Assembly: GCA_044450345.1 (NCBI GenBank) | Contig: JBIOIY010000051.1 | Span: 1-21,617, forward strand | Direction: 5' to 3' | Origin: Thermodesulfovibrionales bacterium | GTDB taxonomy: Bacteria > Nitrospirota > Thermodesulfovibrionia > Thermodesulfovibrionales > UBA6898 | DNA length: 21,617 nucleotides | Shown: positions 1 to 3,924 of the stretch, piece by piece | How the letters are laid out: the number at the start of each line of letters is the position of its first letter | Position numbering within the stretch: position 1 is the stretch's first letter | Notes under the pieces: generated by a model | Told to the model about the DNA's origin: nothing | Seen by the model: the letters and a program-made list of their open reading frames with translations, nothing else | Database searches by the model: none | Made by a program: the position numbers and the translations under genes

Positions 1-1624
1 ACCCTATCTGCACGCCCAATAAATTCCCATGATCTGCTGCGAGGCCGATGCCGAAGGGCGCTGCCTCGGCCAAGACTGGCGTGATTATCGGTACTGGAAT
101 AGGAGGCGTGATAGCAAAGGATTGTGCACCTGACGGAACAGGTATCGCTCCTGTATTAATAATAGCTTGTCCGATATTGTTCCCATTTTGTTCGGTAAAC
201 CAGAGGTTGCCGTCAGGACCAATTGCAATATTTCCAGGAGCGCTTGAATGAGTGGGGATAGTAAACTCCGTGATGACGCCCGCTGTTGTGCTCTGCGCGA
301 TTCTGTTTCCATTTGTTCCATGTACCGTAAACCAGAGGTTGCCGTCAGGGCCGAGCCTGATAGCCCTTGGGATACTGTTGGGAAGGGGGATAAGATACTC
401 GGTGATGACGCCCGCTGTCGTCATCTTCGCAATGCTATTCCCATTTTCTTCGCAAAACCAGAGGTTGCCGTCAGGGCCGTCTGCCATGCCATTAGGCTGG
501 CTGTTGGAGGTGGGGATTGGAAACTCGTTAAGAACCACTCCTGCCGGAGAGATCTGTCCGATCTTGTTTCCATTGTTTTCGGTAAACCAGATGTTGCCGT
601 CAGGACCGGTCCTGAGCGCCGTAGGTTGACTATTGGTAGTGGGGATCGGGAATTCTGTGATGACGCCGCCTGTAGTGATACGTCCGATATTATTCCCCAT
701 TTTTTCGGTGAACCAGAGGTTGCCGTCAGGGCCAATGGTGATCCCCGTGGGCTGGCTGTTGGCAGTAGGGACTGGAAACTCGTTGAGAATCACTCCTGCC
801 GGCGAGATCTGTCCAATGTTATTCCCCCCTTGTTCGGTAAACCAGAGGTTACCGTCAGGACCGTTTGCGACGACAACAGGCTGGCTGTTGGCAGTAGGGA
901 TCGGAAACTCCGTGATGACTCCCCCCGTGGTGATCCGGCCGATTTTGTTGCCACTGTTTTCCGTAAACCAGAGGTTGCCGTCAAGGCCAAGAGAAATCCT
1001 AAAAGGTGTGCTGCCAACAGTTGGAACAGGGAATTCGTTGAATGTGATGGCGCTGTCCACGTACATATCATCATAATTCACCTGATGGGAACCTGCGCTA
1101 TCAGCACTGTTTTGCCCTGTCAGCCAAACGGTTGTCGCGCCAGGTGGTGCGGTTAGGGAAGCCGAGTCAAGGGCTATCCAAGATCCGGTTGATGTTGTAA
1201 GTAGTTGAGAGGCAGAAATAAATCCGCTGGTACAATCTGCACCTGAAAACCACGAGATTGTAACGAGGCCGCCTCCTGTGATCAACTGGCCAGAGGGAAT
1301 AAATACCTTACCTCCAAATGTGTAGGTTTGCCCTGGGATAATGACTCCGGGTAGACACTGGTAAATTGCTAGCAATGTAGAGGTGCCGTTTGCATTGTAG
1401 ATACTTTTGGCGGATCCCGAACCAGGAGTACCAGTCGCATCGAGTGAGGCATCATATGTTGTTGAAGGATCAGCAAGCCATCCACTGAGATTGCCTTTGA
1501 AGCTGGGATTCGTGGCTAAGTTACCGGCGAATGCGGCTCCAGCAAGCCCTATCAGGATTGATAACGCAACGAGCATCAAGGTGGATAATACCAAAAAGCC
1601 TGATAATTTCTTCGTTATTCCCAT
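1..1624 (-). CDS. Secreted protein: signal peptide + CBM-like domain + 7-repeat Vgb (virginiamycin B lyase)-like beta-propeller + Pro-rich C-terminal region; 3' end outside the window
   Basis: Manual translation from ATG at 1624 (GGAGG SD at 1631-1635) is open to the window edge (541 codons). It reads MGITKKLSGFLVLSTLMLVALSILIGLAGAAFA|GNLATNPSFKGNLSGW...QVNYDDMYVD, then seven EFPxPT..xQP..GPDGNLWFTE..GNxIGxI repeats. Not in the ORF track because there is no stop in the window. Confidence 0.92.
   Translation of the reverse strand, partial: MGITKKLSGFLVLSTLMLVALSILIGLAGAAFAGNLATNPSFKGNLSGWLADPSTTYDASLDATGTPGSGSAKSIYNANGTSTLLAIYQCLPGVIIPGQTYTFGGKVFIPSGQLITGGGLVTISWFSGADCTSGFISASQLLTTSTGSWIALDSASLTAPPGATTVWLTGQNSADSAGSHQVNYDDMYVDSAITFNEFPVPTVGSTPFRISLGLDGNLWFTENSGNKIGRITTGGVITEFPIPTANSQPVVVANGPDGNLWFTEQGGNNIGQISPAGVILNEFPVPTANSQPTGITIGPDGNLWFTEKMGNNIGRITTGGVITEFPIPTTNSQPTALRTGPDGNIWFTENNGNKIGQISPAGVVLNEFPIPTSNSQPNGMADGPDGNLWFCEENGNSIAKMTTAGVITEYLIPLPNSIPRAIRLGPDGNLWFTVHGTNGNRIAQSTTAGVITEFTIPTHSSAPGNIAIGPDGNLWFTEQNGNNIGQAIINTGAIPVPSGAQSFAITPPIPVPIITPVLAEAAPFGIGLAADHGNLLGVQIG
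162..1051 (-). repeat. Seven ~126-132 bp coding tandem repeats (propeller blades)
   Basis: AAACCAGAGGTTGCCGTCAGG-like motif recurs near 197, 329, 455, 584, 711, 839 and 965 on the + strand; it encodes GPDGNLWF on the - strand. Confidence 0.9.
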
Positions 1625-1716
1625 ATCTTTCCTCCTATCCAGTCGGTTTACGGCTTCGAATTAAACATAATTAAGTCTGTCCTGAGTTTATTTATAATCA
1701 GTGGTGTACATTTCAA

Positions 1717-1744
1717 ATTATATAATACCTTGCAAAATTTGCAA
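1717..1744 (-). promoter_or_regulatory. Putative sigma70 promoter of the propeller gene, overlapped by an imperfect palindrome
   Basis: Minus strand reads TTGCAA (1744-1739), 16 bp, TATAAT (1722-1717). The dyad TTGCAAAATTTGCAA at 1730-1744 overlaps the -35. Confidence 0.5.
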
Positions 1745-1924
1745 TGGTAATCCGCTGGACCATGGCAAGACTGCGGTTGCGAACTTCAGGAAGGACGCTT
1801 CCCTCTCAACTTCACCGACGAGTCCGCAGTTTCGGACGGGTGAAACTCTATGAAGAGTACGAATGGAATATGAGACCTTTCAAACGGCGTGAGAACGTTT
1901 GTTATAGCCACCTACGTATAGATG

Positions 1925-1933
1925 TGGTATAAA
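1925..1933 (+). promoter_or_regulatory. Extended -10 (TGnTATAAA) in the IS left end; half of the circle-junction promoter
   Basis: TG at 1925-1926 and TATAAA at 1928-1933, lying 17 bp from the right-end TTGACA after circularisation at CAC. Confidence 0.75.
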
Positions 1934-1939
1934 GAGATT

Positions 1940-2090
1940 AGGGAAAGGCAGGAAGATATATTCAGCCTGGGTCATTGAACCCTGAGTAGTGTTTTGTCTC
2001 CTGCCTCCCGTAGCCATAATTAGTTGATTGGGTCACTGAACCCTCGTTACGCGGGTGGCTTGGCTGGGAGGCACATCCTGTCTTTCAAAA
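1940..2090 (+). ncRNA. Candidate IS110 bridge RNA (putative target-binding loop then donor-binding loop)
   Basis: Outer stem 1943-1953/2076-2086. Arm 1 stem 1954-1958/1995-1999; arm 2 stem 2002-2016/2061-2073. Each arm is capped by TGGGTCAYTGAACCCT (1968-1983, 2029-2044). Loop 2 strands match the element's ends. Boundaries are estimated by hand. Confidence 0.8.
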
Positions 2091-2110
2091 ACTAATGCAG
2101 GAGGTGTAGT

Positions 2111-3298
2111 ATGACTCGGCTATTTGTCGGCATTGATGTCTCTAAGGATTCATCGTCTTCACGGGGGCTTGGTGACAATGCTGAGGACCGGTTCGCCACA
2201 ATCTTTGACATGAACTCAGAGGGATTTGCAAAGCTGTATAAAGCCATTACAGAGCATTGTACAGACATATCAGAGGTCATGGTGGCTATGGAGTCCACGG
2301 CATGCTACCACATCAATCTATTTTCTTTCTTGACCGCGAAGGGTATTCACACGGTTATCATCAACCCGCTGCTGATCGCCAACTTCTCGAAGCTTTCACT
2401 CAGGAAGACAAAGACGGACAAGAAGGATGCCCTTACCATTGCCCAATTCCTCATGTCTCACAAGGACACGATCACACAGCTGTCAGTACCCCCGGATCTT
2501 CAGGATCTCAGGGATATAGCCAGAGAGAGGGAATCGGTGATCCAGATGATCTCTACGCAGACCGTTGAGATGAAAAGGCTGCTGCAGACCACGTTTCCCG
2601 AGTTGGAAAAGCTCTGCAATATTACAACCAAGGTCATGATCGACTTCATAGAGGAATTTCCCTCTGCCCGCTTGGTCAGGGCCGCCAAGCCAAAGATAAT
2701 AGAAAAAGCCTTAAATAGGAAAGGTGTGCGTAGCAGATTGACCTTCACTGTAGATGATATCATCAGGGCTGCCAGGAACTCTGTTGCAACGGTAAGTCCG
2801 GGGAAGGAACTGATTCTGAAGGGCAAGGTGTCTACGTTTCAGCACCTGGGAAAAAGGCGTGACGAGCTCACAAAAGCTCTTACCGAATACTGTAAGCATA
2901 CGATGATCGAGGATCTCAAGATCGTCACTTCCATTACGGGAATAAATAAAGGCACGGCGACTACATTTCTTGCAGAGGTGGGAAGCATAGACAAGTACGC
3001 ATCTCATAAGAAGTTGATTGCCTTCGCCGGCATCGATCCAGCTGTTTATCAATCCGGCAAATATGAAGGAACAGGGAGGATATCTAAACGCGGCAACCGT
3101 CACCTTAGAAGAATCATCTGGCTCATGACAAGAAACGTGATACAGCACAATTCACTTTTCAGGGCGTTCTTTTTAAAGAAACGGAGAGAAGGACAAGCAT
3201 ACAAAAAAGCTATGTTTGCCACATCGCACAAACTGATCAGGGTTGTTTTCGCCCTGCTCTCAAAAAAAATTTATTTCGACCAGACTGTGCATAGTTGA
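2111..3298 (+). CDS. IS110-family transposase/recombinase (RuvC-like DEDD domain + Transposase_20 domain), 395 aa
   Basis: GIDVSK (D9), AMEST (E61), KTDKKD (D103, D106); C-terminal FAGIDPAVYQSGK with the conserved Ser and SKRGNRHLRR; SD AGGAGGTG at 2099-2106. Confidence 0.97.
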   Translation: MTRLFVGIDVSKDSSSSRGLGDNAEDRFATIFDMNSEGFAKLYKAITEHCTDISEVMVAMESTACYHINLFSFLTAKGIHTVIINPLLIANFSKLSLRKTKTDKKDALTIAQFLMSHKDTITQLSVPPDLQDLRDIARERESVIQMISTQTVEMKRLLQTTFPELEKLCNITTKVMIDFIEEFPSARLVRAAKPKIIEKALNRKGVRSRLTFTVDDIIRAARNSVATVSPGKELILKGKVSTFQHLGKRRDELTKALTEYCKHTMIEDLKIVTSITGINKGTATTFLAEVGSIDKYASHKKLIAFAGIDPAVYQSGKYEGTGRISKRGNRHLRRIIWLMTRNVIQHNSLFRAFFLKKRREGQAYKKAMFATSHKLIRVVFALLSKKIYFDQTVHS

Positions 3299-3300
3299 CA
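3295..3300 (+). promoter_or_regulatory. Consensus -35 (TTGACA) at the IS right end, overlapping the transposase stop codon
   Basis: TTGACA 3295-3300 includes the TGA stop (3296-3298) and the first two core bases. Confidence 0.75.
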
Positions 3301-3432
3301 CAAGGTCGCACTCCTTCCGATAAATAGCGAGTAATATTTTCGGGTTCAAAGATGCATTCCTCTATCATAACGCCCGTGCCTCACCAGACATAGCGCTCAC
3401 AGAAGATGCCTTAGTTGTCGGTAAGGGGCAAC

Positions 3433-3924
3433 TTAAAGAGCCTTTTTTTTTGCTGGCAGGAAAAGATCTGACGTAAGGGGTTCTGATAGGTCGAAGCGTT
3501 TTTCACATTCCGTAAGCCATGCCAAAAGAGTGGAGATGAGCAGAGGTTTGGGGAAGAAATTGCATCCCAATACCGCCGCACACTTTCTAAGCTCCGAATC
3601 TTCACTTCCCGTCATCAAGGCCTTGTTCTTACTCGTAAGTTTGCAGCCTCCATGATGCTGCATCTCAAGCAATTCCATCCCTGTCATATCGGGCATGTCA
3701 TAATCAGTTATGAGAATATCTGTACAACGGTTATGCTGCGGGCAACTGTCAGCATGCTCCCTATAGAAAGCGCAGGTGATGGGAGTATCAGCTGTCAAAA
3801 CTTCATAGCCCATCCCTTCCAGGATATGTCTAAAGACATCCAGAATCGTATCGTCATCATCACACACTATAGCTCGTGGCTTTCGCATAAGCTGATTGTT
3901 GCATTTACTTTGGTACGGTTTCAT
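3433..3924 (-). CDS. Stand-alone response regulator receiver with Cys-rich insert
   Basis: IVCDDDD acidic pocket, ILITDYDMP phosphoacceptor, MTG and FPKP motifs. The start could be the later Met (MRKPRAIV). Confidence 0.88.
   Translation of the reverse strand: MKPYQSKCNNQLMRKPRAIVCDDDDTILDVFRHILEGMGYEVLTADTPITCAFYREHADSCPQHNRCTDILITDYDMPDMTGMELLEMQHHGGCKLTSKNKALMTGSEDSELRKCAAVLGCNFFPKPLLISTLLAWLTECEKRFDLSEPLTSDLFLPAKKKAL

Follow-up and report, generated by a model that had tools for sequence, protein, structure and literature searches.

A predicted IS621-type donor-binding loop in the leader of an IS110-group insertion sequence with a CA core

The two solved structures closest to the recombinase presented here are those of ISCro4, also named IS622 (9t56; bioRxiv 10.1101/2025.05.14.653916), and of IS621 from E. 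coli (8wt6; PMC11208160, PMC11208158). In the two latter papers IS621 is described as an element with a DEDD plus Tnp recombinase and a bridge RNA encoded in the left end, in which a target-binding loop is followed by a donor-binding loop. Its donor loop contains a left guide of 7 nt plus core and a right guide that crosses the core; a G-T wobble is formed at donor position 12 (PMC11208158), and two handshake bases follow the right guide. The right end is short, the promoter is split between right and left ends and insertion occurs into a repeated intergenic element. These traits recur at the locus described here, where the RNA and the split promoter are predicted from the sequence. It differs from IS621 by its core (CA instead of CT), by a right loop strand that is one base longer (10 + 2 instead of 9 + 2), by left-guide core positions reading UU or CU that leave the second core base unmatched, and by having no evident 5' stem-loop ahead of its first module; the similarity between the recombinases is distant (E 2.9e-17) and lies mainly in the C-terminal domain. 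ISCro4 is the best solved match (E 3.5e-18), its GIDVSK, ME.T, KTD..DA and SK.G motifs can be aligned and the same loop and handshake nomenclature applies, but its core is CT and its host lineage is different. Members of the IS1111 group share the recombinase family and the RNA-guided logic (PMC11208160), but their RNA is located in a long right end and their subterminal inverted repeats are longer, whereas here the RNA is found in the left end.

The window (the whole stretch of 21,617 nt that was analysed) contains between 1909/1911 and 3298/3300 a segment of about 1.39 kb which we regard, with a probability of roughly 0.93 and on the basis of sequence comparison, as an IS110-group insertion sequence with an IS621-type two-loop bridge RNA in its leader, the region 2017-2060 being the donor-binding loop. 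It has the long non-coding left end (1911-2110, 200 nt), the very short right end (stopping at the stop codon, 3298) and the core repeated at both junctions that are typical of this group, which is also marked by the lack of terminal inverted repeats. A predicted RNA located in the left end, together with a right end that consists of little more than the stop codon, places the element in the IS110 group and not in the IS1111 group. The reading frame of the recombinase is intact and a domain search found both DEDD_Tnp_IS110 (PF01548) and Transposase_20 (PF02371) in it. Its GIDVSK, MEST, KTDKKDA and ISKRG motifs line up with ISCro4, and D9, E61, D103, D106 and S325 are proposed as catalytic residues. 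Judged by these comparisons the predicted system would work like IS621; the tested bridge-RNA features of the IS110 group are present with the exception of the CT core, the promoter across the joined ends being a candidate one. The main parts of the element and its predicted RNA are the following:

1909..1910, + strand: left core copy CA, directly before CCTAC in the family register
1911..1915, + strand: right donor (RD) CCTAC, first bases of the left end
1946..2006, + strand: predicted target-binding loop module, consensus helices 1 and 2
1960-1966 and 1986-1989, + strand: putative left and right guides of the target loop, with core positions 1967-1968 and core UG 1990-1991, respectively
2007..2068, + strand: predicted donor-binding loop module with basal stems 2007-2009/2066-2068 and 2013-2015/2062-2064 and hairpin 2030-2033/2040-2043
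2021..2029, + strand: putative left donor guide, UAGUUGA (positions 1-7) plus UU over the core
2048..2052, + strand: distal part of the right loop strand, UACGC; four of five bases could pair with 1914-1918 in the window
2053..2057, + strand: putative proximal right donor guide GGGUG, pairing with C1909, A1910, C1911, C1912 and T1913 (wobble)
2058..2059, + strand: putative handshake guide, bases GC, which complement C1908 and G1907 in the target flank
2111..3298, + strand: recombinase gene, 395 aa (PF01548 E 2.6e-31, PF02371 E 5.8e-24)
3292..3298, + strand: left donor (LD) TAGTTGA, last 7 nt of the right end, overlapping the stop codon TGA
3299..3300, + strand: right core copy CA, directly after TAGTTGA
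3301..3305, + strand: right target flank (RT) CAAGG; other copies are unlike the window after 3303-3304

The homologue set comprises 162 loci including the window and L002, a relative from the same genome. A genome scan contributed 80 loci (taken from 277 confirmed relatives among 426 candidates) and a metagenome scan 80 further ones. In 141 loci the second loop is recognisable, and the covariation counts given below draw on these; 21 loci were left out due to contig-end cuts or a missing anchor motif. Parsing relied on anchored patterns, with the rows L032, L035, L108, L109 and L144 corrected by hand from the sequence, whereas for L005, L106 and L133 the left-end parse, and for L157 the entire row, were dropped as wrong or degenerate. 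All counts are inflated by kinship among the homologues, and as most donor positions are invariant in the family, most guide positions are beyond the reach of covariation testing. With over 140 elements, distributed over Nitrospirota, Thermodesulfobacteriota and related metagenome bins, this family is a well-populated environmental addition to the catalogue of bridge systems. Two of its loci (L014, L133) carry unrelated sequence in place of the left end and the 5' half of the first loop, with second loop, gene and right end intact.

A consensus of 59 distinct homologous leaders shows two modules, each consisting of a basal stem, an internal loop and a conserved GGGU...ACCC hairpin. It comprises 26 pairs with 98.8% of cells paired, and 12 of these pairs show changes on both sides. 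No shuffled control (0 of 500) matched any of the observed measures, and sliding the partners by 1-3 columns lowered pairing to 24-61%. In the donor module 94.9-100% of the cells of helices 3-5 are paired, compensatory changes occur in 7 of 12 pairs, and the loop strands of the window cover 2016-2029 and 2044-2061. The structure rests on the alignment, because the single-sequence fold of the leader is no better than that of shuffled sequences (z -1.53; 14 of 200 shuffles fold as well). A scan of 1500-3800 against Rfam (E up to 1) gave no matching family.

An earlier note on this DNA, made from the letters alone, had read the second loop as a donor-binding loop whose left strand repeats the right end of the element. 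The identity of TAGTTGA at 2021-2027 and 3292-3298 is indeed exact. The heptamer alone is not rare (the window contains it five times, 1.86 being expected, and five copies are also attained by 5 of 100 shuffles), but with the ends fixed the analytic chance of a 7-mer identity at any of six offsets in a loop strand of 12 nt is about 4e-4. Across the family, positions 2-8 of the left guide are all paired in 57 of 60 elements. Position 4 varies together with the right end: T faces T in 113 elements, A faces A in 7 and G faces G in 2, with a single discordant case, i.e. 122 of 123 are concordant. Identity at all seven left-guide positions is found in the window alone among the elements compared. 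The first compensatory pair was seen in L002 (genome G000, contig C42, minus strand), a sister element with CT core, in which left guide and right end both have A at position 4. It is located at a contig end that cuts its left end about 9 nt short.

For the right strand the same note had claimed that 2048-2057 (TACGCGGGTG, reverse complement CACCCGCGTA) matches 1909-1918 (CACCTACGTA) at 8 of 10 positions and that one of the two mismatches is a wobble. Both statements hold, the wobble being that of G2053 with T1913. GCCACCT by itself is not rare either (three in the window, 2.04 expected). This means that the significance of these matches comes from position and from homologues, because the 7-mer, GCCACCT and the single fold are all weak alone. 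In the family the right guide pairs positions 8-11 in all of 60 unique guide/junction rows. The G-T wobble at position 12 occurs in 21 of 114 unique rows, which form the subgroup of the window, and in L144, the sole element with C at this position, the opposite G is kept and gives a G-C pair. The right guide supported by the family is thus GGGUG (2053-2057) only, as far as sequence comparison can define it. The geometry claimed earlier, i.e. a left guide of the same sense and a right guide in reverse complement, is that published for IS621 (PMC11208160 and PMC11208158), and covariation across the 141 homologous elements agrees with it. A donor-binding loop was in this case correctly readable from the raw sequence.

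The donor site proposed before, TAGTTGA-CAC-CTACGTA, is accurate as a sequence; its core has to be shortened to CA and its distal pairs, discussed below, were not borne out. CAC is common to both junctions of the window and L004 and L006 share ACA, but CA is the only dinucleotide common to both junctions in the family register. The third C of CAC opens the left end and, by coincidence, also the right target flank. Comparison of core and right guide in 137 elements gives CT with AG in 129 and CA with TG in 7 (window included), and one element has discordant cores; hence 136 of 137 are concordant at core position 9. Together with position 4 of the left guide this is the covariation between loop strands and ends to be expected from the earlier reading. 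In the first set, wherever an element has both cores, these are the same. One locus, L164, has CT at its left and AT at its right junction and is probably a mutated copy.

CA is found at both junctions of the window, L004, L006, L094, L100, L107 and L108, and in the recombinase tree it is explained by one or two changes. In this lineage AG is replaced by UG in the right guides of both loops only, and U is kept in the left guides, so that the left guides of both loops mismatch the second core base (UU and CU versus CA). Probably the second core position is not read by the left guides. According to PMC11208158 the second core T is almost invariant in IS621 and related orthologues. The CA core of the window departs from this trait, and a CT core is, by this comparison of sequences, a trait of IS621 relatives and not a condition of the family. 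We give even odds to the proposal that these seven elements represent a natural bridge-recombinase lineage that recombines at a CA core. If it is active, the second core base would be programmable in some orthologues, it would be read through the right guides alone and left-guide pairing with it would be dispensable; such a small lineage could also widen the choice of cores for bridge editing. No paper joining the terms bridge RNA and CA core was found, and the supplementary tables of the 2024 papers may list non-CT cores. A link between core type and the residue aligned with G63 of IS621 was considered and rejected, as the A present in CA elements also occurs in at least 18 CT elements. In one genome with seven copies (L049-L058) left guides end with CA and UA, i.e. 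have A at the second core position opposite a CT core.

Upstream of the left core lies an intergenic repeat, and the second half of the recognition system is apparently directed to it:

1783..1908, + strand: target repeat, intergenic, about 70-130 nt, ending with ...[C/T]AGC-CA-C
1902-1908, + strand: left target (LT) TTATAGC, last 7 nt of the repeat before the core

Copies of this repeat were detected in 7 of 41 genomes searched, that of the window (G000) included; other copies are represented by L085, L086, L087, L090, L091 and L092, and unoccupied ones end with AGCCAC. The left guide of the first loop, AUUCAGC (1960-1966), agrees at 6 of 7 positions with TTTCAGC, the sequence of two unoccupied copies (L086, L092) and of the L094 site, which is occupied. 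Its right guide GUAG-UG (1986-1991) predicts CA-CTAC, which is present in two unoccupied copies of a related genome (L087, L092); the three occupied sites observed, those of the window, of X8/L094 and of X5, have CA-CAA instead. At the occupied site of the window the left guide matches 4 of 7 non-core positions and the right guide 2 of 4. Agreement between right guide and target across the family was judged by eye for this loop. Compared with the family, the window has one additional base in the right strand of the first loop. UUUUGU (1992-1997) opposite ACAAGG was tried as an alternative right guide and rejected, as 1996-1997 belong to the conserved basal stem.

The two bases after the right donor guide have a different partner. 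G2058 pairs with C1908 of the target and not with A3298 of the donor, and among 114 unique rows of the family 104 show a Watson-Crick pair between the first handshake base and target position 7, a value reached by none of 2000 permutations (permuted mean 86.7). From its sequence context GC 2058-2059 behaves like handshake bases directed to the target flank. In the published rule such bases pair only after strand exchange (PMC11208158), and the window fits this rule. Compensatory variants that arose naturally are thus available in the family for three sites: left-guide position 4, the core and the handshake base. An exception to the handshake rule is seen in L049-L058, where the first handshake base A is unpaired with A at target position 7.

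A further property becomes visible only when the two ends are considered together:

1928..1933, + strand: -10-like hexamer TATAAA, preceded by TGG (1925-1927), 17 nt from the core
3295..3300, + strand: perfect -35 hexamer TTGACA, spanning right end and core

Joined ends would read TTGACA (3295-3300), a 17-nt spacer (1911-1927) and TATAAA with TGn, and in 45 of 65 parsed elements TATA[AT]N lies at a distance of 17-18 nt from the core. A strict promoter scan calls none here, because the final T is missing in TATAAA and the strict consensus does not capture it. Reconstitution of a promoter across the core of joined ends is known for IS110 elements (PMC11208160). The conserved TAGTTGA would in this way have three roles, as stop codon, as left donor and as part of the -35 box. 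In L094 the right end is TAGTTAA with unchanged guide, which leads to a G-T pair at left-donor position 6 and a weaker -35 hexamer.

By analogy with IS621 (PMC11208160, PMC11208158, PMC13626964 and 10.64898/2026.08.31.748434) the following course can be suggested. After excision the ends would join to TAGTTGA-CA-CCTAC and create the TTGACA-17-TATAAA promoter that would drive bridge RNA and recombinase. The left strand of the second loop, having the same sense as the right end, would pair with the bottom strand of this junction and the right guide with its top strand across the core, while the first loop would hold the target repeat (CAGC-CA-C). The recombinase serine is supposed to cut after the core, and once the top strands have been exchanged the handshake bases would pair with the incoming target strand.

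The boundaries on which these assignments depend were derived, independently of the loops, from two sources, family alignment and other copies of the element, and both agree with those supported by the earlier reading. In nearly all parsed elements the right end is ATAGTTGA followed by the core, and the left end starts with CCTAC after the core. Multi-copy sets of single genomes (L062-66 with L077; L049-58; L039/40/80; L008/10/11) diverge directly after CT, and the left flanks of the family diverge a few bases upstream of the left end. In public runs other copies of the element in other contexts place the ends at 1906-1911 and 3300-3304, which fits the boundaries claimed before. A 2.8-kb contig of run X8 corresponds to 1906-3304; on either side of this segment it differs from the window and has the flanks of L094. 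Pieces from run X5 begin at 1897 and end at 3303, and a match in run X4 begins at 1906; a contig of X5 without the element follows the window over 1858-1911 and diverges from there on. A shared target motif explains why a few additional bases match on each side.

Three other explanations have to be weighed against the proposed reading. In the earlier note the right guide was a continuous 10-nt duplex of 2048-2057 with 1909-1918, so that the donor would be recognised over 10 nt of the left end. Eight Watson-Crick pairs and one wobble in the window speak for it, as does the right guide of IS621, which likewise extends to position 14, discontiguously (PMC11208158); in our family G at position 4 of the right guide faces C14 in 80 of 114 unique rows, although without covariation. 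This duplex is nevertheless improbable, since position 13 is mismatched in 59 of 60 rows, positions 15, 16 and 17 are paired in 12, 14 and 32 of 114 unique rows (about chance), and out of 64 elements the window alone has all three paired. In addition, L094, the closest relative (91% amino acid identity), and the X8 contig have A in place of G2051 with unchanged left end. The distal UACG:CGTA pairing (2048-2051 with 1915-1918) therefore looks like chance on this comparison. Other registers for distal pairing were tried as well and none yields covarying pairs.

The donor-binding loop could also be genuine but belong to an inactive single-copy relic in a poorly matching site. The genome of the window indeed contains one copy only, the sole other relative there (L002) being 68% identical, the first loop fits its occupied flank only in part, and no circle junction or precise-excision joint was present in the contigs of four public runs, a type of data that cannot show rare forms. 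Considering that the reading frame is intact with its catalytic motifs aligned to ISCro4, and that near-identical or 90-99% identical copies were found in at least three left and at least three right contexts of the public runs, which argues for recent movement of this type of insertion sequence, we regard a relic as unlikely. Hardly credible is the view that the matches are by-products without guide function, the right end being kept as stop codon and -35 box and the loop as a protein-binding site. It would account for the overlap of TAGTTGA with stop codon and TTGACA, for the invariance of most donor positions and for the frequency of the 7-mer in the window, but independent constraints predict neither the three-state covariation at left-guide position 4 (122 of 123) nor the concerted switch from CT/AG to CA/UG nor the covariation of the handshake base with unrelated target flanks. 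The predicted donor-binding loop of an IS621-like system remains the preferred reading, and the element adds one more member to an already known biology; the finding is correct and ordinary.

Some observations concern the surroundings of the element. Paralogous copies of the left flank were rejected as empty sites, because the repeat itself ends 1 nt past the insertion point; they reveal the target motif and not the right boundary. The repeat reads by chance as an open frame in some copies and has no match in Rfam. That it represents the end of another insertion sequence was rejected as well, as an IS110-family gene adjoins only one of six copies examined (L091). This gene (382-1416 of L091, minus strand, contig C27 of the same genome) encodes an unrelated IS110-family recombinase of 344 aa (PF01548 E 1.4e-16, PF02371 E 9.4e-16) and starts, on the opposite strand, 68 nt from the repeat copy; the repeat may be attractive to more than one IS110 lineage. 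On the left side of the window the product of the neighbouring gene (2-1624, minus strand) is a beta-propeller protein that belongs to the virginiamycin B lyase family (PF24684, E 6.6e-107) and is unrelated to the insertion sequence.
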